Below the pieces are notes generated by a model. The model was not told where the DNA came from and made no database searches. It saw only the letters and a list, made by a program, of their open reading frames with translations. This document shows positions 47,201 through 63,345 of a stretch of DNA of 64,000 nt, in pieces. The translations under genes were made by a program, and so were the position numbers. Source of the stretch: Macrostomum lignano (lineage: Eukaryota). Location of the stretch: positions 28,224-92,223 of the forward strand of contig NIVC01003539.1 in assembly GCA_002269645.1 (NCBI GenBank), written 5' to 3'. Position 1 is the stretch's first letter. Each line of letters opens with the position of its first letter.

Positions 47201-47709
47201 GTCGAACATTAAAGAGCCACCATGTCGAACATTAAAGAGCCACCATGTCGAACATTAAAGAGCCACCATATCAAACATAAAAGAGTTACCATGTCAAACA
47301 TTAAAGAGCCACCATGTCGAACATTAAAGAGCCACCATATCAAACATAAAACAGACACCATGTCAAACATTAAAGAGCCACCATGTCGAACATTAAAGAG
47401 CCACCATGTCAAACATAAAACAGCCACCATTTCGAAAATTAAGGAGCCACCATTTCGAAAATTAAAGAGCCGCCATGTTAACCATTAAAGGGCCACCATG
47501 TCAAACATTAAAGAGCCACCATGTCGAACATAAAAGAGCCACCATGTCGAACATTAAAGAGCCACCATGTCAAACATTAAAGAGCCACCGGTTCAAACCT
47601 AAAAGAGCCACCGTGTCGAACATAAAAAAGTCAACATGTCAAACATAAAAGAGCCACCATGTCAAACCTAAAAAAGCCACCATGTCAAACATAGAAGAGC
47701 CACCATGTC
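44290..47709. repeat. 23-bp satellite GAGCCACCATGTCGAACATTAAA; resumes at 62436 to about 62545
   Basis: Well over 100 variant units. The register continues across the Polinton insertion. Confidence 0.97.
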
Positions 47710-47801
47710 AGTAGTATACGTTTTTTTGACACAAAGCCGATTTCCTTATGGCGAAATACATAGTAAGTACAGGCCCAAAAAAATGGCAGAGTCTGAAATT
47801 T
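47710..47801 (+). repeat. Left terminal inverted repeat (92 bp)
   Basis: Reverse complement of 62344-62435 with one mismatch. Confidence 0.97.
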
Positions 47802-48047
47802 GCCGTGCACGCAAACTAGCTTTTACGCAATGAATTAACCAATTAGCTGAATCACTTTTACGCAAACACCTGTCTATCCACCTAAATTCTATCCGCAATG
47901 AATGCAGCTAATTACAAGCCCAACCAAAATTCAATTTGACACAAAGCTTATTTCGCGTATAACTTAACGCATTTAAATTCTTCTTTTCAAGCAGTATTGT
48001 ATATTTCAACTAGATACAAACACAATTTGACGCACAAATTAGCGAGT

Positions 48048-48611
48048 TTACAAATATTGAGGCAGCACTCGTAAAACAAAATTGCGTAATTTAGCATACA
48101 AGTATCGAAACGAACCAGTGCGAATTATATTCCGTTTAAAAGCGCTTCGAATAAAACACTCTAGGTTTCCTCTGGTAGTCAACTTATGAAAAATATAAAA
48201 AATTACCCAAAATCCACAACTTCCACTCTGTGGGTCTTGGATAGCAAAGCGACTATAACACCAATTTTTCGAATTTCCACATTCTTTTCCTAGCCATTTT
48301 GCTATTCTTGGCAATGGTACTAGACCAAGAGAATCAAAATATTCACCAAGTCGTTTGCTACCGCGACCTGCTCGATGACCATAAACCCAAACGCATACCC
48401 AATGTTTTCCGGGCAGGTTGGAGACGTCAGTATTAACGATAAAAAAATAGTCTTTACCGTCTAAAGGTAAGCGTCTAAGTCCACCAACAAAGTTTTGAGG
48501 AAAAACACCAAGAAATACAACATTTAAAAAATGTGCGCACAATTTCGATACAACATTGCGAAGGAAGCGATCTGTTACACCACGATCTAGGATAGAATCA
48601 ATTACTTCCAT
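48048..48611 (-). CDS. Adenain-like cysteine maturation protease
   Basis: IVNTD...PGKHW (His), EYFDSLG (Asp), IQDPQSGSCGFW (Gln, Cys). Overlaps the MCP stop by 10 nt. Confidence 0.93.
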   Translation of the reverse strand: MEVIDSILDRGVTDRFLRNVVSKLCAHFLNVVFLGVFPQNFVGGLRRLPLDGKDYFFIVNTDVSNLPGKHWVCVWVYGHRAGRGSKRLGEYFDSLGLVPLPRIAKWLGKECGNSKNWCYSRFAIQDPQSGSCGFWVIFYIFHKLTTRGNLECFIRSAFKRNIIRTGSFRYLYAKLRNFVLRVLPQYL

Positions 48612-49924
48612 ACTGTGCCAGGAACAATGTCGCGAAGTTCAGTCAGTTGCAGTTGCTTGTCAAATATACCTCCAAATATGACGTTGTACACGGTACTAGT
48701 TGCAGCATTGAAGCGTAACTCTAGTTTTACATTTCCTTCCTTATACAGTTGCACTCCCCGTCCGACACCAGGTTCACTTCCAAGACTGAATGCAAAAATT
48801 GAGTAACCATTGGCGTAATCCAGCATATTAAATCCAATATCTCGTCCCTGTAGATAGATTCCAAGCTGTTGTAGCAAAAAATTATACTCTGTCACACAAT
48901 CATCTCCAAAGTTTGTCTGCAGCGGACGCGATGGTACCGAGTCTCCATTCACAAACACACCAATGCTGCTCACATTTGCATGCTCAAAGTTGAACGGATT
49001 TGTGTCCATGCTTCCATTGAATGCCTTGTTGCTTACGATTGCCATCAATAAAAGCCGTGGTACCCCACTAGGAAACAAATTTTCATGCGTATGGCTAGAC
49101 GATCCTCGGGGTATAGTAAACGTACCAAGGCTTAGACTTCGGTGCGGATATAATGCATTGTGACTTTTAAGTCCATGAGCATGTGCACTGATAACACTCG
49201 GCGAGGGTTGAACAAACCGCAATCGTAGTTCTGCACGCAAAAACTTGATCTCATAGTCTTTTAAAACCGCACCAGCTTCTAATGTTGACCCGCTCAGGAC
49301 AAATTTACTTTTTGCCGGTATGAGCTTGATCCGTAGTGGTGTCTTTGATAGTAGATACCGAGGCTGACGAAACAAATCCAAGAATAACGGCCCCGATACA
49401 GTGCACCGCCTATTGTTAGCAATGAGCGCCTGCCTCTTTGTTCGTCCATCGTTTTCACTTGTTGCATTCATTTTACCAGCTGTATCCTTGTAAAACCCCC
49501 ACGGCAGTAAACCAGCCTTCTGAGCTGTATGTCCATATTCCAGTAATGTAAGAAGCATAGCCTTGTATGGATACATAAAACTACCACCTTCAACTACAGT
49601 ATCGCCAATAGTAAATTGAACGTCCTCAAACAATGTTCCAATAACCAAATTATTCAAACAAACAAAATTTTTCGTTGCATCTATAGGTTCACCTTCACTA
49701 TCACTAACGCTGAAGCATACCGTGAGCACAGTTTCTTGTAGATCCAAATACAAATCGCCTGCAGGCACAACTTCAAATTCGATAGGTGATCCTTTTGTAA
49801 TACCATGTTGCGGTTGAATGTTAGTATATCGATTATCCAAAACACTAAACTGAACAGGACTTTGATCAAATAGCGACAATTCACTTTTAAGAGCAGCAAT
49901 ATCAGGTCCAAGCAAATGGTTCAT
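48602..49924 (-). CDS. Major capsid protein (double jelly-roll, Polinton hexon-like)
   Basis: 440 aa from ATG 49924. KSELSLF...P.Q...GSPIEF...DLYLDLQETVL, GPLFLDLFRQPRYL, FNGSMDTNPFNFEH and EGNVKLELRF recalled as Polinton MCP motifs. Confidence 0.88.
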   Translation of the reverse strand: MNHLLGPDIAALKSELSLFDQSPVQFSVLDNRYTNIQPQHGITKGSPIEFEVVPAGDLYLDLQETVLTVCFSVSDSEGEPIDATKNFVCLNNLVIGTLFEDVQFTIGDTVVEGGSFMYPYKAMLLTLLEYGHTAQKAGLLPWGFYKDTAGKMNATSENDGRTKRQALIANNRRCTVSGPLFLDLFRQPRYLLSKTPLRIKLIPAKSKFVLSGSTLEAGAVLKDYEIKFLRAELRLRFVQPSPSVISAHAHGLKSHNALYPHRSLSLGTFTIPRGSSSHTHENLFPSGVPRLLLMAIVSNKAFNGSMDTNPFNFEHANVSSIGVFVNGDSVPSRPLQTNFGDDCVTEYNFLLQQLGIYLQGRDIGFNMLDYANGYSIFAFSLGSEPGVGRGVQLYKEGNVKLELRFNAATSTVYNVIFGGIFDKQLQLTELRDIVPGTVWK

Positions 49925-49925
49925 G

Positions 49926-50384
49926 CTACTTTTCAAACAGACTAAAAAGTTTCTTGCTTGCAGTAGCAGTTCGACGTTTTCCTATACCACCGGTCTTCTT
50001 GCGTTTTCTTTTGTTCACGCGTCCCTTTCCACACTGTCTTGTTCGTCGTTTCTTTTGCCGTTTCTTCTTTCCTAAGCTTATAGCCACTCCACTGGTTCTT
50101 TTCCTTCGCTTTGGTCTCGAAACTGCAGTTGTATTAAACATCTCTTCGCTCGATTCTGTGTCCAAGTGACGCTTCCGACCCATACCAATTTTTGCTGTCG
50201 CACTTTTCAAATACTCCAGACCACGATCCAAGAAATCTTTCTTTGCGTTGCGTAGTACAGGATACACCAATCTGTCCGCCAAATTTGACAAAAAACCGTA
50301 ACCTTCGTAAACAGGAATGCCATATCCACCTCCACCTTCAGCAGATCTATTCGGACCAGAATAAAAAGCAAAAATAGGATCCAT
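49926..50384 (-). CDS. Basic putative virion core / DNA-condensing protein
   Basis: ATG 50384. Gly-rich GGGGYG...YEGYGFL head and a very Lys/Arg-rich C-terminus. Position between integrase and MCP. Confidence 0.7.
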   Translation of the reverse strand: MDPIFAFYSGPNRSAEGGGGYGIPVYEGYGFLSNLADRLVYPVLRNAKKDFLDRGLEYLKSATAKIGMGRKRHLDTESSEEMFNTTAVSRPKRRKRTSGVAISLGKKKRQKKRRTRQCGKGRVNKRKRKKTGGIGKRRTATASKKLFSLFEK

Positions 50385-50425
50385 TTCAACAGTCTTCTCT
50401 TCGTCATGCAATCCCAATTCATGTG

Positions 50426-51586
50426 TTACTTATACACTTTAGAAAATAGTTTAGCAGTCTTTGCGTCAAGATCATTTTCGTTTAACCACTGACTTCTTGA
50501 GATTGGCATACCTTTCCATTTTACTAGATACAGACGACTTCCATTTTTCGCTCGATCAGTTTCAATAACTTTTTCAATTTCATTAGGTGTTTCATCTGTC
50601 TCGTTTACCAACATTAGTTCCGCTTGGTTAAACCTTCCTTTCAGCACTTCAAATCCATCTTCAGGGTCCACTAATTCGTACATTGGCGGGTCTGTCAAGT
50701 GTACACGATGAATGCGATATTTTGAATTACTCCAAGTCGTAGTGTATCCTTTTTCAAATGTTCCTCGACGTCGTGTAATTCTAACCCAATCACCAACTTT
50801 AAATTTATTCTCATTCTTTTTAGTGTACGACTTCGCAAACATTTTGTCCCACAAAATTCCTTGTAAATGCGGGTCTGTCTCTACCCGTTTTGGTGTTTCT
50901 CCACTCAAGGATCGATGAGGACTAGAGTTGAAATTATCTTCCAATTGCGGTAAAATGTCAAACCATCGAGGTAAATTTTTTGCTCGAAAGTATCGTAATA
51001 GACGTTCCTTTAACGAGCGGATAAATCGTTCAGCCATGCTTGCCTTGTAATTGCTTTGGCTAACAAAAAATCGAACTCCTTCCTGTTTCAGCATTTGACG
51101 TGTAGCTCTTCCGAGAAACTCCATACCAGCATCACCTTGTAAATAAACAGGCTTAAAACCACTTCGAAAAATCTCTAGTAATACTTGACTAACTTCTGAA
51201 GGCTTCTTTGTACGCAATGGTCTTAGTCGTACAACTCTAGTAAAACAGTCGATAAGAACAAGTATGTAACGATAACCTCGATTTTCCGTCTTGTATTGAG
51301 GTAAATCTGCCAAATCGATTTGAAACTGAAACTTTGCAACTGGTGGCACACTAATTTTTGGAGTTGGAAAGTTTCGTCGTGTTTTTCGAAATAAATGATG
51401 CTCATTTGTTGATCGCACCCAATTATCAACTTCGCGCTTTGCAACTTTGTTCGTAATCTGTGGAAACTTTTTACGTACTTCACGAACAAGTATAGTCTTG
51501 TTACCACTAAATGAAGTAGGCCTGTTCAAGTTAAAAAAAGCATCCGTCAAAAATTCTTCAATTTCCTTACGCACTCGCTTCATCAT
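50426..51586 (-). CDS. RVE (DDE) integrase with C-terminal chromodomain
   Basis: FQIDLADL (D), YLQGDAGMEF (D), KASMAERFIRSLKERL (E). Chromodomain EIEKVI...YLVKWKGMP...QWLNENDL. Confidence 0.96.
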   Translation of the reverse strand: MMKRVRKEIEEFLTDAFFNLNRPTSFSGNKTILVREVRKKFPQITNKVAKREVDNWVRSTNEHHLFRKTRRNFPTPKISVPPVAKFQFQIDLADLPQYKTENRGYRYILVLIDCFTRVVRLRPLRTKKPSEVSQVLLEIFRSGFKPVYLQGDAGMEFLGRATRQMLKQEGVRFFVSQSNYKASMAERFIRSLKERLLRYFRAKNLPRWFDILPQLEDNFNSSPHRSLSGETPKRVETDPHLQGILWDKMFAKSYTKKNENKFKVGDWVRITRRRGTFEKGYTTTWSNSKYRIHRVHLTDPPMYELVDPEDGFEVLKGRFNQAELMLVNETDETPNEIEKVIETDRAKNGSRLYLVKWKGMPISRSQWLNENDLDAKTAKLFSKVYK

Positions 51587-51867
51587 CAGTTAGATTGATG
51601 CTAGTCGTTTGACAGTTGCAACAAAAGAACGAAGCCTCGATCGAATCTCCGTCAGTATCCTCGTTGTGCTCCTTTCCCAGAAACGGCACACATTCAGATT
51701 TTATGCAAAAAAACTCACAGAGACGAATCAAAAGTTTTTGGAAGATAGATGACATGGTTTGTCTTATTAAACTATATATTTTTCATAAACAAAAAATTAA
51801 CCTTTTTAAAAAGCTTATAGTGCTCGAATCAATTTTGTTAAAACGTAATCTGTAATTTTAAAACAAC

Positions 51868-52557
51868 TTAATTCAGTGTTTGATAATTTTCAAACAGACT
51901 AAGATCCTCCTTTGCAACAGTTTTTGGAGCAGACATTAGCTCGTTTCGTACATGACGCCCGATTTGGTTTGCTGCGATTCCACGTTTTCGAAGAAAGTCT
52001 AAAAATGTTTTTAGTCCACTAGGCGGTTGAGTCTCGTGTCGCTTAAGCGGTCTGTCTCGAACAACATATTCCATGAGATCTTGTATCTCGGCATCAGTCA
52101 AATTAGCCAGCATTGGTTCTGCATTCTTGTCCATGTCCGAAAATAGGTTTTGAGCGAGAGCTTCGAAACGTGGTAAAAAAACTTTAGGAATTTCCCTTGA
52201 TTCGCTGGCATATGAACTTCTTACAGTAGTCCCTTTGCGAACAAGTGACAGATTGTCCTCGTCTCCAGTGCGATAGACTTTGCGCAATTTTAAAAGTTTG
52301 TCTTCCAATCTGCTTCGTTTCAATTGAGCTGTGTAATTTGGCTCCTTTTCCATTTCCTTGTCCAAGTTATCCATTTGGTCTCTCATTTCCACCATATTTT
52401 TTGCCAGAGCATCTTGCGGTGCGTCTAAAACTTCAGTTTTTCGAGGTGTCTCAGCAGTTGGTGACGATCCTTGCTCTGCACCTTGACATGCAGATTGATA
52501 CACAGATTCAGGTACTAGATACATTCGTTGAAAACTACTACTCTCGTTAGTTCGCAT
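51868..52557 (-). CDS. Hypothetical Polinton protein (229 aa, coiled-coil-rich)
   Basis: Clean ATG-to-stop ORF in the gene array. N-terminal RMYLVPE resembles the KMxLVP starts I recall from Polinton proteins. Confidence 0.7.
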   Translation of the reverse strand: MRTNESSSFQRMYLVPESVYQSACQGAEQGSSPTAETPRKTEVLDAPQDALAKNMVEMRDQMDNLDKEMEKEPNYTAQLKRSRLEDKLLKLRKVYRTGDEDNLSLVRKGTTVRSSYASESREIPKVFLPRFEALAQNLFSDMDKNAEPMLANLTDAEIQDLMEYVVRDRPLKRHETQPPSGLKTFLDFLRKRGIAANQIGRHVRNELMSAPKTVAKEDLSLFENYQTLN

Positions 52558-52567
52558 TATATTCCTA

Positions 52568-52995
52568 CTACTTTCGTTGAATTGATCGTATTAAATTCGC
52601 TGCTCCCGCGGCGGTACCAACTACTCCAGACGTTATCCCAAGCGCAGTGCTTATAGCAGGTAGAGCGGCAATAATTGGAGCCAAAAAAGGTAAAAATCCT
52701 CCGTGTTGGACAAGTATTTTCCTTTTTGCAGTAATTGGAGTCTTCTGTTCCAAAAGCTGGCGTATATATCTGCGATGCTTCTCAAGTCGTCTTTTGTTAC
52801 AGTTACTAATTTTAATACGTCCACTAATAATATTAAACAGAAAGTCTACTAGACATCGTATCTCCGACTCTGAAAGTGTTTGTAAAAAACTTTTTCTCTG
52901 CTTTGGATGCTTTAGCCGATAAACAATTTGTAGTAAAAAAGCACACTGACACAATGAGCGAGCATTTTGTTTTCCTTTTCTGTTAGTTCGCTCAT
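52568..52995 (-). CDS. Conserved Polinton virion protein with QHGG/FLPFLAPII amphipathic tail (protein VI-like); start unresolved
   Basis: K.RK..L......I..L.D...N...G.I.I....KRRL.KH...IRQL...KRKILVQHGGFLPFL pattern. No in-frame ATG. ATG 52995 joins if the A6 run at 52935-52940 is really A7. Confidence 0.72.
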
Positions 52996-53051
52996 TCTTA
53001 CAAAACAAATTCACAAAATTTTCTATTACACAATTAATCTTTGCTTATAAA

Positions 53052-54041
53052 TTAGTCCGACCTATGTTTAAAATGCAGTACGACAACAACGTGTGCTCCC
53101 GGATCAAAATTAAACGGTTTTCCGCGCTGGTCCGATAGTCGAATCGAAATCTCGTGAATTTGTTGTCGATTTGTTTTCAAGTAGTAGGGTGTTTGCAATG
53201 CACTGCTATCGCGTATAAGTTCTCCGTTTTTCTTTTGTTGGAGTTCCACAACTCGAAGCAACGGTACTGATGTACTTCCCACTGCTTGATACTCGATTAT
53301 ATCTGTGTAACAGTACATGTAAACCGTTTTACTAGGCATCGGAGAAGGTAGCACAGCATCCAAGTAGGTTTTGTTAATGCGCCAAACACGATTTCTCAAC
53401 CAATATTGGTGTACTTTGATGTACACTTCTCCTTCCGTTTTTCGAAGATAGTCTCCATGCGAAACAAGTCGTATAGCTTCACCAGGCGATAGAACACAAT
53501 AAAAAACATAATAGTTCTCAGGTACTAGCGCTAGAGTATTGTCGAGACTTTTTATCAAATCCAAGTATGAACCATCCGGTGGTTGTACACTACCAGCGGC
53601 AGGTTTTGATAATTTTTCCGAGACAAGTCCAGAAAGTTTCTTCCAAGAGTCAAATTTGAAAGCGTCCATAAATGTAACTGGTAGTTCTAATCCAATAGTT
53701 TTTTCGCCTGAATTTCGTAAAAGCCAGGCAAATTTTTCATCTGTACCAGACGGTTGCCAGGAAACGTAAGCATCCAAGTCTGCCTCTGCCCAAACACGAC
53801 CCCAATAGTTTTTCTTTAATCGTATTATTGAGTCAATGTCCGCAAAATATGGAACTTCAAATCGACGCTCACGATGAGCATTTGGCGTCGTAATTGCTCC
53901 ATGGCACAGTAATTCAACTAGTGCAACCTCGAAGAATCCGTTCAATAAATTTATTGGTTCAGTTAGTCGCACTCGAAATTCATTAGGCGAGTTGGTTTCG
54001 TAACTGATATCGTTTGACGGCAAAAAAACGTAAAAACTCAT
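53052..54041 (-). CDS. Minor capsid protein (penton, single jelly-roll)
   Basis: ATG 54041. FYVFLPSN...NSPNEFRVRL..PINL..GFFEVALVE and C-terminal YCYTDIIEYQAVG...PLLR...ISIRLSDQRG.PF.F...VVLHFK. Confidence 0.87.
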   Translation of the reverse strand: MSFYVFLPSNDISYETNSPNEFRVRLTEPINLLNGFFEVALVELLCHGAITTPNAHRERRFEVPYFADIDSIIRLKKNYWGRVWAEADLDAYVSWQPSGTDEKFAWLLRNSGEKTIGLELPVTFMDAFKFDSWKKLSGLVSEKLSKPAAGSVQPPDGSYLDLIKSLDNTLALVPENYYVFYCVLSPGEAIRLVSHGDYLRKTEGEVYIKVHQYWLRNRVWRINKTYLDAVLPSPMPSKTVYMYCYTDIIEYQAVGSTSVPLLRVVELQQKKNGELIRDSSALQTPYYLKTNRQQIHEISIRLSDQRGKPFNFDPGAHVVVVLHFKHRSD

Positions 54042-54098
54042 TTTGAAATAAAACACAAACTAATATTGACAACAGTTTATAATTTGCTTATAATAATA

Positions 54099-54788
54099 TT
54101 ACACAAACTTTGCATCACATTCACGAGTATAGACAACTTGTTCATCACCAGAAAATATTCCTGTTCTCAATCGTAAAAAATCTGGTGTCACTTGCCGCAG
54201 GTCAATGAATAAATATGAAAAAGGTTTGTTATTTGTTGCGTCTTCATACACATTCACTAGAAACCTACTATTACGCGGATACATTTGTCGACCGAGATGT
54301 TCAACTGTGGTTCGATCGCGCACACTACGAGTTAGACAAATATAACTAGCTGATAAACTTCGCATGCGTGCTTCTGGATCAGACTTGTTAAAAAGACCTT
54401 GACAAAGGTACAGACAAGTCAAAGGGATATGATGCGCATGCTTTGTAAACATACTAGTAAATTCTGGCAACTTAGCAATCTCGCTTTGCAAGTCGTCAAC
54501 AACAACCAAATCGTGTGGTAAAAAACGATTAATCATCTGTGGTGTGAATTCGGGTACAAAAACAATAGGGTCAAGACCGCTTTTTTGCCAGCATGTTCTA
54601 ATTCGTTGTTGATCGTCTGGTTTCAAACTTGATCCATGGCACCAAACAAGACGGCACGGTTTTTTATCAAATAATTCTTTTCGTTCAGTCAACAAACGCA
54701 ACGTCCATTCAGTTTTACCCGAGTTTGAAGGTCCAGCAATAATAAATGTAGAATCGTGAGCTAGTTGCATATTGTATGGCTGCTGCAT
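54099..54788 (-). CDS. A32/FtsK-like genome-packaging ATPase
   Basis: ATG 54788. Walker A AGPSNSGKT, Walker B LVVVDD, HH..LTCLYLCQ, KPFSYLFIDL. Confidence 0.93.
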   Translation of the reverse strand: MQQPYNMQLAHDSTFIIAGPSNSGKTEWTLRLLTERKELFDKKPCRLVWCHGSSLKPDDQQRIRTCWQKSGLDPIVFVPEFTPQMINRFLPHDLVVVDDLQSEIAKLPEFTSMFTKHAHHIPLTCLYLCQGLFNKSDPEARMRSLSASYICLTRSVRDRTTVEHLGRQMYPRNSRFLVNVYEDATNNKPFSYLFIDLRQVTPDFLRLRTGIFSGDEQVVYTRECDAKFV

Positions 54789-54790
54789 TT

Positions 54791-55234
54791 TCAAGCACCA
54801 AAGCGTTGCTTAACTTGCATAACCTTGGTAACCAACTTCGCAGCTAGTTTTTCTTTCCAACCAGTAGACGGATCGTGGGCAATCTCTCGTGCACCAGATT
54901 CTAATAGCTTATCAGCTTTTAACCTCTCTTGCACGTCAGAATTTTTATCATAGGCCACGTCGTGAAGCATGCACAAATTGTCAAGCCGATTAATTCCTCG
55001 TTGTCCTTTTGCTAGCCTAGCTTGCAGTTGCGTACCTGGACCACAAAACTGATATCCGCCGGGTAAATGTGCTTCAAATGGTAAATGATTAATTAACCAA
55101 TTTACGACACCATAACCTTGTTGCTTTTTATTAATCTTTCTAATAGATTTCTTCTTTTTACGAATGCTCTTCTTTTTCTTTTTAAAACCTCGATCTTTCG
55201 CTGGAGACATTTTTACAACATATATTTTAGGCAT
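54791..55234 (-). CDS. Parvovirus-type phospholipase A2 domain virion protein
   Basis: Ca-loop GYQFCGPGT and catalytic NRLDNLCMLHDVAYD. Basic N-terminus followed by QQGYG. Confidence 0.9.
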   Translation of the reverse strand: MPKIYVVKMSPAKDRGFKKKKKSIRKKKKSIRKINKKQQGYGVVNWLINHLPFEAHLPGGYQFCGPGTQLQARLAKGQRGINRLDNLCMLHDVAYDKNSDVQERLKADKLLESGAREIAHDPSTGWKEKLAAKLVTKVMQVKQRFGA

Positions 55235-55325
55235 AAATTTTTAAAATTGCTTATAGTATTTACAAAGCTCTCGCATAGTGCACCAATCACCAAAGAAAAA
55301 AATCAGTTTATTATTATTATTATAC

Positions 55326-55808
55326 TTATTGGCCAGTGCTGCCAAAGCCGCCAAAGCCGCGCCGCTTGGTCGGCGGCTCAATCATCCGAATCGAATTGTC
55401 TGCTTCAGTCACATAGACTGAAGCAAGCACGGCCTGCTCCAGAACCAGTTGTGCAATACTGAGCCCGGCATAGTACTCAAAGTCTTCCGGACTGTAATTA
55501 AACAAGACTATACAGATTTCACCAGTATAGTCGGGGTCGATTACGCCACCGCCAACAAATAAGCTGTGCAGAGCCATGCTGGAACGTCCCGCTATCCTGC
55601 CATAGGTACCAGGCGGTAAGCGAATTTTGAGTCCGGTTCGCACACTCCGGGACTCGTAGGCCGGAATGGTACCATCGACGCCAGCGCAAAGATCATACCC
55701 GATCGACCCGACAGTTTTTCGGGTCGGAATCGTTGCCGAATCGTATAGACGTTCAACTAAAAGCTTACGATCAGTTAGTTGTTGTTGCTGCTGCTGCTCG
55801 GGATTCAT
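55326..55808 (-). CDS. dut: Trimeric dUTPase
   Basis: All five motifs present: GYDL, GRSS, GVIDPDYTGE, AQLVL, RGFGGFGSTG. ATG at 55808. Confidence 0.96.
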   Translation of the reverse strand: MNPEQQQQQQLTDRKLLVERLYDSATIPTRKTVGSIGYDLCAGVDGTIPAYESRSVRTGLKIRLPPGTYGRIAGRSSMALHSLFVGGGVIDPDYTGEICIVLFNYSPEDFEYYAGLSIAQLVLEQAVLASVYVTEADNSIRMIEPPTKRRGFGGFGSTGQ

Positions 55809-56132
55809 GTCGATTCTTGTAGCTGAAAGTTTAAAAAAAAGTTTTTTTTCTTGAAACATGAACGATAGCACTACATTTACGTCTACTACAAACACAAGCT
55901 TAGTCTTGAGAATCTAACTATAAAAAATATACTTTTTCAAATAATTAAACACAAAAAAGTGCTAAAATTATAATTTAAACGAATGCCGGTATCATTTATT
56001 TATTGTAAATAATGATCAATGAAAAAATTAATGATGGGTTACAGTCTTCTATAGCATGCTATTACTTTGTACAACAAAAGAGATCAGAGCATATTGTTAA
56101 TTAATTAGCCAAGTGCCAGTGTCCAAAGGGTA

Positions 56133-56431
56133 GCGAATTAATTGAACTTGTCCAGGATCGCTTCGTATCGAAGAAGCTTAGTGCAAGTTTTCTTTGTTGC
56201 ATCAAAAAAAACTTTCTGTTTTCGAGAACGAATGGACTGTATGCGCGAAAACACAAGTTGTCGCTTGTGTAAGACTCTTAAATAGTCTTGATGCTTTAAA
56301 CTGCTCTGTGCGGCTTTAGAAGCAGTACTGCTCCAGCTTTGCGACCGATTGAGACTGGAACTTTAAACGATTGCTGCTTAACCAGACCGGACCGGACTGG
56401 ACCGGACCGGACTGGACCGGACTCCCCGCGC

Positions 56432-56463
<32 letters not shown>

Positions 56464-57177
56464 ACCACCACCACCGCCGCCACCACCACCACTGCCGCCG
56501 CCCGCCCCCACACCACCGTGGGACGTATTTGTTGACAGTGTGCTTGCATGGCTTTTGCGATAAACGCAGAGCATCAAGTCTAGCTGCTCGATTGCTCTAT
56601 ATTGCCAATTACTACCTCGAGATTGAAAATTGTCAATTTTTATTAACAACTGATTAATAACGCGTGCGAACCAGTCATTGTAGGCCTCGGGAGATAACAG
56701 CATGTCACTGTTTGTAATCGTCTCATCAAATGATATTGTCGCAATGTTGGTATTAAAATAGACCGAAATGATCTCTTCGCTGCTCGAGCCATCGTTGTCG
56801 TCTGCTGCTGTTTTCGGTCGAAATAGTGTCACTTTCAAGTGAAAGCAGACTCTTATTAATAAACTGGGTGAGCCAATTTTTTCCAATATTTTAAATATTG
56901 GTTCTCTTAAAGACGCAATCAACTCGCCAGGAAGTAACTCGCCAGAGCTGTTGCCTTGTTGTTCAAGAGTGGGAGTAAATTCGACAAAATTTACCCGACC
57001 ACGATGAGCTGACTCGCGCAAAGCGATGGACCACCCATCTGGTGGGTTTTCGATCAGGTTTTGCAGCGATCCGGTCAGTAATCGTTGCGGTGAAAAACAA
57101 GCACCATGCGAGTGAGCATGCAGCTCGGCTTGATTACTGAACTTTTTTCTGCAGATTTGGCATTGTGCACGCGGCAT
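56133..57177 (-). pseudogene. Remnant of protein-primed PolB: C2H2 finger plus N-terminal domain, low-complexity junction, then a C-terminal-like fragment in another frame
   Basis: CQICRKKF...LHAHSH. YFNT...IDNFQSRGSNWQYRAIEQLDL resembles the GSGW region of Polinton PolB N-termini. After the (CCG/CCA)n-(GGACC)n patch, another frame reads LKHQDYLRVL...IQSIRSRKQKVF (about 56330-56133). No exonuclease or palm motifs anywhere in the element. Confidence 0.6.
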
Positions 57178-57400
57178 TGTGTGCACCTAGCTCGACAACG
57201 AGCGTATCGAGCATAATATTAATAGATGATCCGGTTTGTCATTTGCGGCTGTAAGAAAAATGATGATTTGGTTAGTTATAGGTATAGCTGACACGTTTAC
57301 TATTAGAGAAAACAATTGGTAAATAAATAAAAAAAGACAAAATGTTTGTAAAAGAATGCATCGCAACTGCGATTTGACAGCAATTGTTTACTTGTTAAGT

Positions 57401-57958
57401 TTAGTTATTAACAGAGATTAAAAAATCCTTGACATGGTTAAGAATATTATTCAATTCATGAGTGTTTTGAACGCCCATAATAACAAACTTTTTCGAAAAA
57501 AATATGTTACAAAAAAGCCTTGGTTTTGATGCTGATCTAACAGAAACTGCTTGTGGGAAATTTTCTGCATCGTATCCAACCAGATAATTCGAATAGTAGC
57601 CTGCATATCTTTTTAGACTAGAGAAACCGAATTTTGGCCAAAGATGACCAATAAAGCCGACATAGGTACTGCTCTGAATTTTTACTGAATCAAAATCTAC
57701 ACAATTAATAGTGTCGTTGATAAATCGTAAAACTGAGACTATCTGAGAATTTGATTTACAGCCATATATAGTTAGTTTTCCTGCTGGATAAAGTTGGATT
57801 TTAGCATTTGAATAAATTGTCTTTAGCATTGTTGGTCGGCTTAGGAATAGTTTGCAAAACCGGTTTCTGGTCTGTAGCTTCTGTTTGGTCTGCTTTAAAT
57901 CAAATTTTTCAAACGGGTGCAGCTTCAGACTCGCAGTAACTATTAATAGGACAAGTCG
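57401..57958 (-). CDS. TATA-binding-protein-like factor (about 185 aa open frame after a splice acceptor; first ATG only at 57829)
   Basis: Two TBP repeats: LIVTASL...FDLK...NRFCK...AKIQLYPAGKLTIYGCKS and KIQSSTY...YDAENFPQAV...KPRLFCNIFFSKKFVIMG. Compare TBP TALIFSSGKMVCTGAKS, KIQNMVG, YEPELFPGL and KPRIVLLIFVSGKVVLTG. Confidence 0.8.
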   Translation of the reverse strand, partial: RLVLLIVTASLKLHPFEKFDLKQTKQKLQTRNRFCKLFLSRPTMLKTIYSNAKIQLYPAGKLTIYGCKSNSQIVSVLRFINDTINCVDFDSVKIQSSTYVGFIGHLWPKFGFSSLKRYAGYYSNYLVGYDAENFPQAVSVRSASKPRLFCNIFFSKKFVIMGVQNTHELNNILNHVKDFLISVNN

Positions 57959-58168
57959 CTAAAACGGAAAATAAATAATAAGAAAAGTTAAACATGACTA
58001 TACTATCGTAAATTCTAATATTAAATTACAAAACCTGGTTAGCGTACAAGGAGTAGCAAAAAATGTTTTGAGCTTTTCCCTAAAAAATAATATTTCCCTA
58101 GCCAAAAATTTGATAAATATAGTGGAATAAGTTAGTTAAAACTTGGATAAAATTAGTCAAAAATTTTG

Positions 58169-59366
58169 TTACTCATCATCAGAGCTGCTGTACGAGTCGT
58201 CCGATGAAGACACGCTAGCTGTAGTAGCGTCCGCAGCAGCACGCTTTAAAAATGCTGTCTCCTTGGACGCTACCCTGGTTCCAGAGGCAGGTGTACTCAC
58301 CAAGATCTTTGCTGGTGGAGCCTCCACCCAGTCTGTGCCATCTGCACCAGCTTCGGCAGAATTGTTTTGCTGTTTTGCACCGCTGCGTTTTCGAACTTGC
58401 TTTTTAGGCGGCGGTTCAATAGAGGCTGGCGCTGCATTCGATGTAGTCGACTTCTTCGATACGGTGGTGGTAGACCGACGCTTTGCAGGTGACTTGGCAG
58501 GTGTCACCTGGCTTGAATTCTGCAGGCTTTGTTCATTTGCTTCTTCTTGCTCACAGGTAGATGTTGGGGACGGACTCCTGCTTCTAATTGCTGACTTGGT
58601 CGCGGGTAGGTGTGCAAGCACTCCCTTGAACATGTCGAGGCGCTGCAACATGTTGTCGGAAGATTCTATGAGTGTCAGAGAGCGCACAGCGAATGTAATG
58701 CGCCAGACGAGGCAGCCTTTTGGACAATACAAGCTCGTTGCTTGCACTGTCATTTGGTAGGTACCGCTGACACCTTTGAAATCGGAAATGGACACCTCCT
58801 TCCCGTGTGGATGATCGTTGCTGATCCTGATTGTGGCACAAGGGTAAGCAGGCTTTATAGCCAGCCATTGTTGAGGCACAAACTCGAGGACGTCGTTAGC
58901 ATGCTGATGAGCTGGTTTTGTTAGTCGTGCCAAGGGTCGAGCATCTTGAATCTCGTTCAACTTGACCGATAGACCTTTTTCGACTTGACTGCAAAACATT
59001 ATATAAATTATGAATATAGTTTCCTAAAATTAATTGTATAAATTTAATATGGTGCTCACCGGAGAGAGTGGAAGAGTTCCTTATCGCAGCTGTCTGGATG
59101 AAATTGGACACTTACTGCGTCGCGAGAGTCGTGTCTGCAAGACGGATGATCGAGCTCTGGCCTTTCTGCGATTCCACGAAAAAGCTCCATTGGAGCCTTG
59201 GTTTGCAATATAATTGGGTACCATTTTGTACACTCGATTGATGGTTTCCACGCAATAGATCGAAACTGGCAGGACGAACCAGTCGTGGTTGTAGACTGCT
59301 CTCCAACGTAAAAATCGGACTCGAGTCGGAGCGTACAATTGACTCCGTCTTGATGCAAGCTGCCAT
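58169..59366 (-). CDS. Spliced gene, probable OB-fold single-stranded DNA-binding protein with acidic tail
   Basis: 71-nt GT-AG intron 59059-58989 joins ORF 59056-59379 in frame to ORF 58169-58999 (CG/T = Arg). PIILQTKAPMELFRGI resembles the T7-like viral SSB motif. Ends SSSDDSYSSSDDE. ATG 59366 needs one extra base at the 59310-59314 run. Confidence 0.6.
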
Positions 59367-60059
59367 GTCTTACAAGCAATTGAATATAGTATTTCTTTTG
59401 CTGTAATGATTGAGCTCATGAAAAATTGACCATTTCGGGTCTTGTATTTATAGCAAGCTTTGCATGCTGTTTGTGAACTAGTAAACAAATTTAATTGTTG
59501 CGTGCTGATTAAGACATTGTTGCGTGCCAAAGGTGGCATAAGTTTCTAGGGTGGGTTGCATGATTAGGTCTAATTTTACGCAAATGTAGGTTGATATTTT
59601 ATACAATAAAATTAATGAATCTTAGGCACACTAGTTATAAATTTGCAAGAGTAACACGATGGCAAGCGTTTAATAAGAAGACTGCTGGTTGCTGCTTCAT
59701 TAGATTGGTTTTGTTCTCAAGTAGAATGTAATTAAAATATTTTGCGACTTGAAAAATTAGCAATCTTGGATTTTAGAGTAAAAATAAGCTGCACGCGGTG
59801 CTATGAAATTAATTTATTGAAAGTTTTGCTTGCATGTTGGAATTTTTTAGCTCGCACGGTGACAAGAGATTGCTTGAGTAACCTATATATAGAGTGTTAC
59901 TTTTCAAACAGAAAAAGGTATAGTTGTAACTCAGCTTTTGCAGTCCTATATTGAGCAGAAGCTATATAGAGTTACACTATCATGCTGCGACGCGCAGCTT
60001 GTTGGGACTATAATGACTGCCGCTGCTATAACCGCATGCAGTCAGTGCAGTTGACACAC

Positions 60060-60770
60060 AAATGCTGTTTGGACTAAGCTAAATTACTGTGTTGAGACAG
60101 TTAAGCTGGACCACGGCTAAATCACTATTGATACGGTTAATTGCTACTAGACCCATGGCTAAATCACTGTACGTTGAGACGGTTAAGCTGGACCACGACT
60201 AAATCGCTGTACGTTGAGACGGTGGTTAAGCTGGACCATGGTTATAAAACTGGACGGGTGGTTAAGCTGGACGACTACAGCTAAAATTACTGTTGAGTCA
60301 GTTATGCTAGACCACAGCAGCCAAATCACAGTTGAGGTAAAGCTGACCATAGCTAATTCTCACTGTTGAGACGGGTGCTGCTGCTTGGCTCACAGCTAAA
60401 TAACTGGACAGTTAAGCTAATCGGACTACAGCTAAATCCCTGTTGAGACAGTTGCCTGGACCACAGCTAAAATCACTGTTGAGGCAGTTAAGTCTGGACA
60501 ACAGCTAAAATTACTGTTGAGACAGTTAAGCCTTGACTATAGCTAAATCATCGTTGAGGTAGTTAAGCCTGGACTATAGCTAAATCACTGTTGATGCAGT
60601 TTTAAGCTAGACCACAGCTAAATCATACTGCTGAGGCAAAAAAGCCGGACCACGGCTAAAAACTGTTGAGGCAAAAGCTGGACCACAGCTAAATCATACT
60701 GTTGAGGCAAAAGCTGGACCACAGCTAAATCATACTGTTGAGGCAAAAGCCAGACCATGGCTAAAGAAAC
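60060..60770. repeat. Array of about 18 diverged 34-42-bp units with an internal palindrome
   Basis: Consensus CTGTTGAGRCAGTTAAGCTGGACCACAGCTAAATCA containing AGCTG-N5-CAGCT. Confidence 0.9.
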
Positions 60771-60927
60771 GTATGAAAAAAAAATTATTTGCATGGATTA
60801 ATAATTTTTGTTTAATGATGACTGTACAAGATATTGACTTTATATTGAATTAAATAATTTCAATAAATGGCGAATAAAATTGAAAGAATTTTTTAGAATA
60901 ATGAATTTATAGAGATTATATTATTGA

Positions 60928-61566
60928 TTACAGACTTGTTTGATATATACTAAAAGAGCAATTACTTGGACACATTGCTGGCAAAATTTTATGAAGAGTT
61001 AGAAAAAATGTCTTTTTAAGATAGGTCCCAATATTCAAATACTTGAGTTGTATTACAGGTCTTTGTAATTCTACTTGGTAGAAGCCTGTGCTCATTTGAG
61101 AGACTTTTACAGACTTGATGTCCTTCTGTACAATAATTGGCGAGTTTAGCAGCGGTTGAACTTGGGTAGAAATAGCAATTGATGATGATGGTGTTTCAGT
61201 TGCTGTCGTTGGTTTGGTACTTGTAGGCTTACTGCAAGTTTGCTTTGTTGGGTCATTGTAGCTGGTTGGTGATGGTGGTGGTGGTGCATACTGCAGTTGG
61301 TCAGTTGGTCGTGGGTTCGATTGCTGCCTAATTGACTGAATAACATCAGTTCTTGTGTAAATGCGATCTAGCTCAGTTGTCTGTCTCTCGACATGAATCG
61401 AGGTTACTCTGGCGAGAGATGTAGAATATGATGCTCTTGCAGCAGAATTGGATGTGGTGGTGTCGTGGCAAATGCGTTTGCACTGATCTGGAGGTGGCCG
61501 CGTGAAGAAACCATTCTTGAATGCTATAATAATGGATAAGATGAGGGAAATTTGGTATAGGTGCAT
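60928..61566 (-). CDS. Orphan 212-aa protein with signal-peptide-like N-terminus and Thr/Pro/Ser-rich middle
   Basis: MHLYQISLILSIIIAF, CKRIC, PPPP/TKPTT-rich stretch and CPSNC. Clean ORF on the same strand as all element genes. Confidence 0.55.
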   Translation of the reverse strand: MHLYQISLILSIIIAFKNGFFTRPPPDQCKRICHDTTTSNSAARASYSTSLARVTSIHVERQTTELDRIYTRTDVIQSIRQQSNPRPTDQLQYAPPPPSPTSYNDPTKQTCSKPTSTKPTTATETPSSSIAISTQVQPLLNSPIIVQKDIKSVKVSQMSTGFYQVELQRPVIQLKYLNIGTYLKKTFFLTLHKILPAMCPSNCSFSIYQTSL

Positions 61567-61584
61567 GTATACAATGTATATAGA

Positions 61585-61810
61585 AACTGAACTAGCAGAG
61601 AATCAGTCTAAACAGAAACCGAACTAGCAGACAATCAATCTAGAAATTCTGAACTAGCAGAGTATTAGTCTAAACAGAAACCGAACTAGCAGAAAATCAA
61701 TCTAGAGACTGAACAAACAGAGGATCGGTCTAAACAGAAACCGAACTAACAATCAATCTAGAAACTAAACTATAGCGAACAGTCAATCTAAAAAAGAAAA
61801 CTGAACTAGA
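61585..61810. repeat. About 30-bp degenerate tandem repeat upstream of the orphan ORF
   Basis: AACTAGCAGA.AATCA.TCTA units. A GTAAGA donor-like site lies just upstream on the minus strand (about 61828). Confidence 0.75.
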
Positions 61811-62343
61811 GTAGGTGATTATCTTACCTTGTTTAACATAGCGCTCGGCCAATTCCTGCTGACGTGATCGCTTCATTTCACTTAAGATGTAAGTATAGTT
61901 GAACAAGTAGTATAATGTAAACTTGGTTTAAGTTATTTAATATTTTCTGTGTCAGTGTGTTCGTATATATATATAGTATAAAGAAGAAGCATGTTGACGC
62001 AGTTGTTGACATAGTATCTGTAAACCATCTGCTCAAGTTGGTGCAAAAATTCTATAGGCACTCAAGAATAGATCATTTACTATCTTTCTTCAAAAGGGTG
62101 ATAATATTCACAAGTTTTCAATATTTCAAAAACACTTGAAATGTGTGAATAGCTTTGGAGTAAATTTGTCTTGAATGGAATCCTTTGAAGTGTGTTTGTG
62201 TCACCATTGCTAGAATCGGTTACTTGTATTTTGGACAGGTGGATATGCAATTCGTCTGAATAATCACGTTGCGTAAAAGATATTTAGCGTGCACTTGGAA
62301 TTTCAGACTGCGTGCACATGGAATTTCAGACTGCGTGCACATG

Positions 62344-62435
62344 AAATTTCGGACTCTGCCATTTTTTTGGGCCTGTACTTACTATGTATTTCGCCATAAG
62401 GAAATCGGCTTTGTGTCAAAAAAACGTATACTACT
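62344..62435 (-). repeat. Right terminal inverted repeat (92 bp), preceded by extra copies of a 23-bp unit (62296-62343)
   Basis: Ends ...AAAACGTATACTACT. Subterminal TGGAATTTCAGACTGCGTGCACA is repeated. Confidence 0.97.
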
Positions 62436-62639
62436 CATGTCGAACATAAAAGAGCCACTATGTCAAACATAAAAGAGCCACCATGTCAAACATAGAAGAG
62501 CCACTATGTCAAACATAAAAGAGCCACCATGTCAAACATTCAAGATATCCAATTTCAAATGTAAAGGTATAAAGCGCCATGCCAATTTAAAGGAGCCACT
62601 ATAAAGCTAAGGAAATTGTCGCTCTAGCTACTTATTGTC

Positions 62640-63195
62640 TGGATGGTTGCTATTTGGGGATGCTATCTATCTTGGGGATGCTTGCTATTTGGAGGATGCT
62701 TGCTTTCTGGGGGATGCTTGCTATCTGGGAATGCTTGCTATCTGGGGATGCTTGCTATCTGGGGGATGCTTGCTATCTGGGGATGTTTGCTATCTGGGGA
62801 TGCTTGCTATCTGGTGGATGCTTGCTATCTGAGGGATGCTTGCTATCTGATGATGCTTGCTATCTGGGGATGCTTGCTATCTGGGGTATGCTTGCTATCT
62901 GAGGGATGCTTGCTATCTTGGGGTATGCTTGCTATCTGAGGGATGCTTGCTATCTTGGGGATGCTTGCTATCTGGGGGATGCTTGCTATCTGCGGAATGC
63001 TTGCTATCTTGGGATGCTTGCTATCTGGGATGTTTGCTATCTGGGGGATGCTTGCTATCTGGGGGATGCTTGCTATCTGGGGATGCTTGCTATCTGGAGG
63101 ATGCTTGCTATCTTGGGATGCTTGCTATCTGGGAAATGCTTGCTATCTGGGAGAATGCTTGCTATCTGGAGGATGCTTGCTATCTGGGGATGCTT
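62640..63195. repeat. 18-19-bp minisatellite GATGCTTGCTATCTGGGG inside the Helitron
   Basis: Direct tandem units. Confidence 0.95.
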
Positions 63196-63345
63196 GTGGT
63201 CTTGGGAAGATTTCTTATTGCAATTCACTTTCATTGAGCAGTTTGTCTGTTGTCTTTGTGAAGGATTTTTTGGCTGTCTTTTTGTTAATTGTAGAGAACA
63301 GAGATTCTATCCAGATGTCCCCCATCGGGGGGCGAAGATTGCTAG

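Follow-up and report, generated by a model that had tools for sequence, protein, structure and literature searches.

A TBP-like gene of Macrostomum lignano Mavericks opens at a splice acceptor and may take its start codon from the host spliced leader

How is a gene translated if its coding exon begins at a splice acceptor and has no start codon of its own? The question is raised by a TBP-like coding exon of 185 codons (57401 to 57958, minus strand) in the window, the whole stretch of 64,000 nt of Macrostomum lignano DNA that was analyzed. Across its 5' boundary the minus strand reads TTATTTATTTTCCGTTTTAG and then CGA CTT GTC, the first exon base being 57958. The pyrimidine tract and TAG before Arg1 (57959 to 57985) form a phase-0 acceptor, whose TAG (57961 to 57959) is also an in-frame stop codon, and the first in-frame ATG (57829 to 57827, Met44) lies 43 codons downstream, within the first TBP repeat. 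An A/T-rich gap of 210 nt (57959 to 58168, minus strand) extends from the upstream stop codon to the acceptor and would be either an outron or the 3' part of an intron.

In the genome, 40 matches to the TBP region were scored, 31 of which, the window's copy included, are full length at 97 to 100% identity. These near-identical copies, together with the copies L021 to L023 (∼80% identical), in which the acceptor AG is retained, rule out an error of assembly or of one copy as the cause of the missing ATG. A protein search of the genome gave 84 matches, from which 20 divergent loci were fetched. Among these, the loci whose 5' end is intact fell into five further Maverick families at 40 to 46% identity, two of them close to each other. 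In all five a pyrimidine tract and CAG stand directly before the invariant Arg1 codon, again in phase 0; an in-frame Met upstream of Arg1 was found only in L042 and L043. Among 413 YAG sites on the sense strand of the element, the TBP acceptor is jointly the most pyrimidine rich (rank 1 to 2). The stop-to-acceptor gap is 124 to 490 nt in the other families. AATAAA is absent from the window's gap, and two of the six families have one 71 to 75 nt above the acceptor. The acceptor is a real, conserved feature. An earlier note on this DNA, made from the letters alone, had described a frame that lacks an ATG and opens at a phase-0 acceptor formed by the in-frame TAG, with the first ATG 43 codons down; this description holds in the sequence, in the 31 copies, and in position and phase in the six families.

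That the gene is TBP-like is indicated by a Pfam match above the cut-off (E 2e-7) and by Atlas (0.96). The claim that the similarity extends above the first ATG cannot be reproduced with a single sequence (the phmmer match begins at residue 50, and Pfam covers residues 127 to 179), but it is borne out by a profile of the six families, by conservation, and by a structural model. The profile matched solved TBPs in the PDB (E 6e-9), from position 6 in one case and from positions 14 to 18 in most others. Identity across families is 0.38 for residues 1 to 43, which hold five invariant residues, and 0.40 and 0.39 for the remainder. In the model (pLDDT 89), these 43 residues are folded as a strand (4 to 11), a helix (21 to 30), and a strand (35 to 38), the first strand-helix-strand of TBP, and Met44 opens the strand at 44 to 49. 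Foldseek returned TBPs (best E 1.8e-7) with TM values of at most 0.44 and an rmsd of about 8 Å, so the relative placing of the TBP halves differs in the model. Sequence and predicted fold together point to a two-repeat TBP core. TATA binding by TBP is characterized by four DNA-intercalating phenylalanines; F134 and F153 of the second repeat align with TBP phenylalanines, and in the first repeat Tyr57 aligns with one and the other is unaligned. Because the first 43 codons are conserved, folded, and aligned with TBP, and because an acceptor precedes Arg1, the protein very likely needs a start that is spliced on.

We also searched representative proteins for relatives, and examined 9 of the 121 found. 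Four distant relatives of 184 to 190 aa start with a Met one or two columns before Arg1, although these starts are gene-caller predictions, which cannot reveal splicing. Two of these four stand-alone proteins have Gln at the position of Met44, and in P0001 and P0002 a Gln, compatible with CAG, stands just before the equivalent of Arg1. Protein search, a weak one for this purpose, found no full-length or fused TBP-like forms, and no related loci turned up in viral or metagenome contigs.

The gene lies in a Maverick/Polinton-type element of 14.7 kb (47710 to 62435, minus strand), with terminal inverted repeats (TIRs) of 104 nt each and a 6-bp target duplication (47704 to 47709 and 62436 to 62441). 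Its long ORFs are all on the minus strand. The integrase has a Pfam rve match (E 4.5e-8) plus a chromo domain, as expected of Mavericks/Polintons. Pfam also identified the dUTPase, a phospholipase A2-like gene, and a protein X-like gene (Adeno_PX, E 3e-6), and the protease matched at E 0.042. What we take to be the capsid and packaging ATPase genes were labeled from motifs and gene order, with no Pfam match. The TIRs, 6-bp duplication, integrase, and putative protease-like gene are shared with Mavericks and adintoviruses, as far as the accessible parts of their descriptions go (PMC8097293, PMC8502044). PolB is shared as well, in sister copies of the window's element. In the sister copy L025 the PolB frame is 1,415 aa (DNA_pol_B_2, E 4e-20), with an endonuclease VII-like domain (E 1.4e-11) N-terminal to the polymerase domain (L025:5151-9398). 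By comparison with L025, the window's copy lacks ∼3.2 kb of PolB at 56302 and retains only a 5' remnant (56296 to 57177, minus strand) with its own ATG at 57177. It does not have the protein-primed PolB of an autonomous Maverick, and so we classify it as a nonautonomous derivative. The high-copy element is an expanded nonautonomous Maverick from which most of PolB is gone and in which the putative capsid-block genes are kept; PolB deletions of other types, filled differently, occur in L021 to L024 and L027. The element is embedded in a very-high-copy repeat, and tandem repeat tracts lie both within it (60060 to 60770 and 61590 to 61810) and in its flank (62436 to 62550 and 62640 to 63200).

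Could the host supply the start? The earlier note proposed that the spliced leader (SL) of a flatworm host donates an AUG. The published work on the M. lignano SL, in the part that was accessible (PMC8629364), gives the 3' sequence of the leader and an acceptor motif, [T/C]TNCAG, and makes an unpaired acceptor a requirement for predominant trans-splicing. The motif fits the TBP acceptor in five of the six families, the window's family having TAG, and it fits cis acceptors too. The 21-mer at the 3' end of the SL has 61 exact matches in the genome (control, 0). We examined 12, 5 from tandem clusters and 7 not clustered. All five clustered loci have an ATG followed by a GTAAG donor and share a common downstream sequence. 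They are host SL RNA genes with a leader that ends in AUG before the donor, which the proposal presupposes, and they mark the host as a Macrostomum-type flatworm. The seven nonclustered matches (L029 to L034 and L060) have no donor, do not run into TBP, and are followed by unrelated sequence, several sharing flanks; they resemble trans-spliced RNAs that were retroposed. In Schistosoma mansoni, initiation at the SL AUG was reported (Cheng et al. 2006, as cited in the accessible part of PMC9851317), and for parasitic flatworms the part of PMC12582326 that we could consult describes acceptors that are often used both in cis and in trans, but rarely so in operons.

Could the acceptor be served in cis instead? 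The next gene upstream, on the same strand, has an exon 1 with its own ATG at 59366 (59060 to 59366), a 71-nt GT-AG intron (58989 to 59059; joint 58988/59060 in contigs of five of eight runs), and an exon 2 (58169 to 58988); a TATA-like box (59445 to 59453) lies above its ATG. Of 21 copies checked, only the window's has a broken frame in exon 1. We call the gene SSB-like, a lead only: VIA gave a best Z of 3.1 and Atlas 0.86 to 0.90, the model of exon 2 has a pLDDT of 56, and Foldseek returned no match to exon 2 at E ≤0.001, with phage Enc34 SSB and DUF2815 at E of about 3. The earlier note had considered a donor at 58172 and set it aside as out of phase, correctly, since the upstream frame puts it in phase 2. 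Its exclusion of cis-splicing does not stand, however, because it missed a consensus phase-0 donor, GTGAGT at 58295 to 58300 (minus strand), in the tail of the upstream ORF, from which a 342-nt intron ending just before 57958 is predicted. A GTRAGY donor is present at the homologous Leu|Val-Ser position in six of six families, within P-x-x-K-x-L|V-S, the sole invariant stretch of a poorly aligned tail. In all 12 copies compared it is the only phase-0 GTRAG from exon 2 to the acceptor, and none of the nine remaining Val-Ser dicodons has GTRAG (Fisher P = 2e-4, for related sequences). The third base of the Val codon is A or G only, and identity stops after +6. The donor is intact in all 25 window-family loci that bear the exact acceptor string, and its use would remove 259 to 619 nt across families. 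It is absent from L076 and L077, broken SSB-like loci with no TBP gene, a weak control. From its sequence the donor at 58300 is probably functional, and the acceptor is complemented by an upstream cis donor.

Transcript data from 24 runs were available, all as assembled contigs and with RNA status guessed or unknown, and eight runs were examined: four over 55200 to 62500 and four others over 57100 to 59480. The first four gave no listed joint at 57958 in 55200 to 62500, where 4 joints and 103 loose ends were obscured by the flanking repeat. The other four gave one joint, that of the 71-nt intron, and eight loose ends, of which none resembled the SL and none fell at 57958 or 59368. Over 57958 the contigs of X1, X4, X6, X15, and X17 are continuous, and contigs of X7 and X12 are unspliced through 58300. 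Because contigs drop rare variants and there was no positive control, these data weigh for neither model. A contig break at 57962 in X3 was rejected as an SL join since its position does not fit, and contig ends at 58037 (X7) and 58128 (X12) were not used as a poly(A) site since their positions differ. A second GT-AG intron, of 304 nt (61524 to 61827, minus strand; joint 61523/61828 in four of four runs), belongs to the element's 5'-most gene. We read both joints as cis-splicing, the RNA status of the runs being guessed. When the first 5.2 kb of 13 family loci were compared with the 5'-most gene (60928 to 61876, minus strand, ATG at 61876), no match was listed, not even for L025, a sister copy with 96% identity; in L021 and L022 its counterpart sits downstream of the PolB remnant.

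The starts of neighboring genes bear on the choice between the two routes. We surveyed PolB starts at 30 loci, 25 of which had the CxxC in frame; L042 and L044 lacked the start region. Eight loci of two families (the window's and that of L043) have an ATG of their own five codons above the first Cys. Nine loci of three families have instead a CAG that ends exactly where that ATG ends, 12 nt above the Cys. In six loci of the sixth family the CAG is at 30, 27, or 24 nt, always in phase 0, so the indels have kept the phase. The PolB frame contains no upstream Met in 10 loci from two families; in 5 loci from two other families a Met lies higher up (L037 and L038 at −40 codons, L039 to L041 at −19). 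The acceptor and the PolB frame of the L043 family are in different phases, which excludes phase-0 cis fusion as a mechanism common to all.

The kinase gene (Pfam dNK), absent from the window's family, has a YAG 2 to 9 nt ahead of the ATG in each of 14 copies; three times this YAG is the TBP stop codon. YTNYAG lies within 28 nt of the ATG in four of five kinase families versus 3 of 52 late-gene starts (Fisher P = 4e-4; the families are not independent, and 2 of 54 late starts were dropped for want of a Met). Early starts as a whole have YTNYAG in 21 of 23 cases, but the acceptor itself served to define 10 of these 21, and it was fixed before the dUTPase ATGs were chosen, so that circularity is avoided in the kinase comparison alone. 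In L045 (3940 to 5319, minus strand), L046, and L047 the TBP frame continues into the deoxynucleoside kinase, giving 460 aa with Pfam TBP and dNK matches; this family still retains an acceptor-like TAG and an ATG at the kinase start. The dUTPase gene (55326 to 55830, minus strand) has an acceptor 14 nt before its ATG at 55808. In its eight copies the spacer from acceptor to ATG is 4 to 22 nt, the acceptor is in frame in none, and there is no donor at a conserved position upstream; GTRAG is present in the PolB-dUTPase gap of L025, L064, and L065. The earlier note had pointed to AGs before two neighboring ATGs. Both exist, and the one at the dUTPase (14 nt) looks like a conserved acceptor, but the one at the SSB-like gene (2 nt) does not: it is an AAG, and L035, L036, and L046, the only loci in which homologues of this start were located, have no pyrimidine-tract YAG there. 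We rejected it as an SL site.

We consider an AUG donated by the SL to be the best single explanation for the start of the TBP-like gene, with a probability of about 0.55. The block of SSB-like, TBP, (kinase,) PolB, and dUTPase genes would form a single transcription unit driven by the TATA-like box at 59453, from its sequence the likely promoter of the block. Cleavage of the RNA downstream of every gene would be followed by recapping through SL trans-splicing at the next gene's acceptor, and the terminal AUG of the leader would be joined in frame to Arg1. This would yield a minimal TBP core of 186 residues, which might, speculatively, be a transcription factor for the late genes. With a phase-0 acceptor at the first codon a gene's own ATG would become dispensable, as may have happened to TBP in all six families and to PolB in at least two. 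SL use in the gene block is favored by the interchange of ATG and acceptor at PolB and by the acceptors that precede the ATGs of kinase and dUTPase. The host SL genes, the phase-0 YAG of the six families, the Met of the distant relatives near Arg1, and the reports on Schistosoma and on operon acceptors also count for it. Against it are the conserved phase-0 donor at 58300, by which the acceptor is not unpaired and which would fit the phase-0 PolB acceptors too, the TAG of the window's acceptor where the motif has CAG, the Mets further up in PolB, and the GTRAGs in the PolB-dUTPase gap. The earlier proposal of an SL-donated AUG is thus favored by the comparison of PolB, kinase, and dUTPase, and it has lost its exclusion of cis-splicing. 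Cleavage at a 3' site could separate the acceptor from the donor at 58300; from uncut transcripts this donor would likely yield a second, cis-spliced fusion isoform, and the two routes may coexist. For the wider proposal, that this Maverick clade has an SL-resolved replication operon in which TBP and some PolB start codons were ceded to the host SL, we see the odds as even.

A possible, though doubtful, alternative is that splicing is in cis only, with the donor at 58300 joined to 57958. The TBP core would then be the C-terminal domain of an SSB-like fusion of ∼517 aa, and unspliced RNA would give the SSB-like protein alone. All that was said of the donor argues for this (its homologous position in six families, its uniqueness as a phase-0 GTRAG, its base choice, its integrity in the 25 loci, and, weakly, its absence where TBP is absent), as do the GT-AG joints elsewhere in the element. 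The conserved P-x-x-K-x-L-V-S may, however, be a protein motif, the tail past the donor is partly conserved as protein, the X7 and X12 contigs are unspliced there, and the nearest outside relatives look stand-alone; nor would cis fusion account for the ATG/AG interchange of PolB or for acceptors at the kinase and dUTPase genes whose frame is wrong or whose phase varies. Routes other than the SL AUG and cis fusion alone are, taken together, unlikely. In one, which we find improbable, a small leader exon with an ATG would lie farther 5' in the element and be cis-spliced to 57958 as well as to other genes: the joint-supported donor at 61827 does have a phase-0 ATG four codons upstream, but the longer frame there is phase 1 and suits its own gene, which has no listed match in the part of the 13 family loci that was compared, and no conserved leader ending in ATG was seen among phase-0 donors. 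More improbable still is a start at Met44, giving a truncated protein, or a gene that is untranslated. Met44 is invariant in the six families and the window's element is nonautonomous, yet residues 1 to 43 are as conserved as the rest and form a strand-helix-strand in the model, some relatives have Gln at this position, and the conserved phase-0 acceptor would be left unexplained.

If the SL supplies the start, the nearest precedent is that of Schistosoma, where the same kind of AUG-ending leader is joined in frame to a start-less coding exon. There the genes are the host's, whereas here they belong to a virus-like mobile element, the loss of the ATG is fixed throughout the six families, and the leader faces competition from a conserved cis donor. 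Operons of M. lignano, in the accessible part of their description (PMC8629364), have the same SL 3' sequence and acceptor motif, and the gaps of 124 to 490 nt on the same strand are below the 1-kb operon threshold used there; unlike in those operons, the TBP acceptor has an upstream donor, and its SL use is proposed. In the literature searched, where subscription journals were thinly covered, neither SL use by Mavericks nor Macrostomum Mavericks appeared as the subject of a paper. In adenovirus the E2 unit is a spliced block of DNA-binding-protein and polymerase genes with some starts on a separate exon, the E2B genes being cis-spliced to a short upstream leader exon. That is cis-splicing of a viral exon, and no conserved viral leader was found here. 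Cap-snatching RNA viruses gain host 5' sequence for expression by start-snatching, and NeSL retrotransposons insert at SL genes; these involve other chemistry or insertion, and neither involves loss of an own start codon at a splice acceptor.

If our reading is true, a DNA virus-like element depends on a host noncoding RNA for its first codon, which would directly exemplify parasite adaptation to SL trans-splicing. It would also be a built-in host-range lock, tying the elements to hosts with an AUG-ending leader, and the interchange of ATG and acceptor at PolB would be a natural series for the loss of a start codon to the SL. On either reading these Mavericks have spliced genes. In the accessible part of their description (PMC8097293) intact vertebrate Mavericks are intronless, whereas the flatworm elements carry introns and genes headed by acceptors. 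Annotation based on ORFs will consequently truncate or miss their TBP and PolB proteins.

A pX-like frame (52568 to 53044) has no Met in the window, but we dropped it as a second case of a missing ATG since sister families carry their own. TATAAGYAA occurs above four late genes (55247, 54084, 53041, and 50426, minus strand); these are four of the eight matches in the window, versus 1.4 expected. Across the six families TATAAG lies within 80 nt upstream of 17 of 52 late starts versus 1 of 23 early starts. TBP-like genes have been noted in some MELD viruses, according to the accessible part of PMC8502044. Judged from its position, the TATAAG motif is likely a late promoter and a candidate target of the TBP-like protein.
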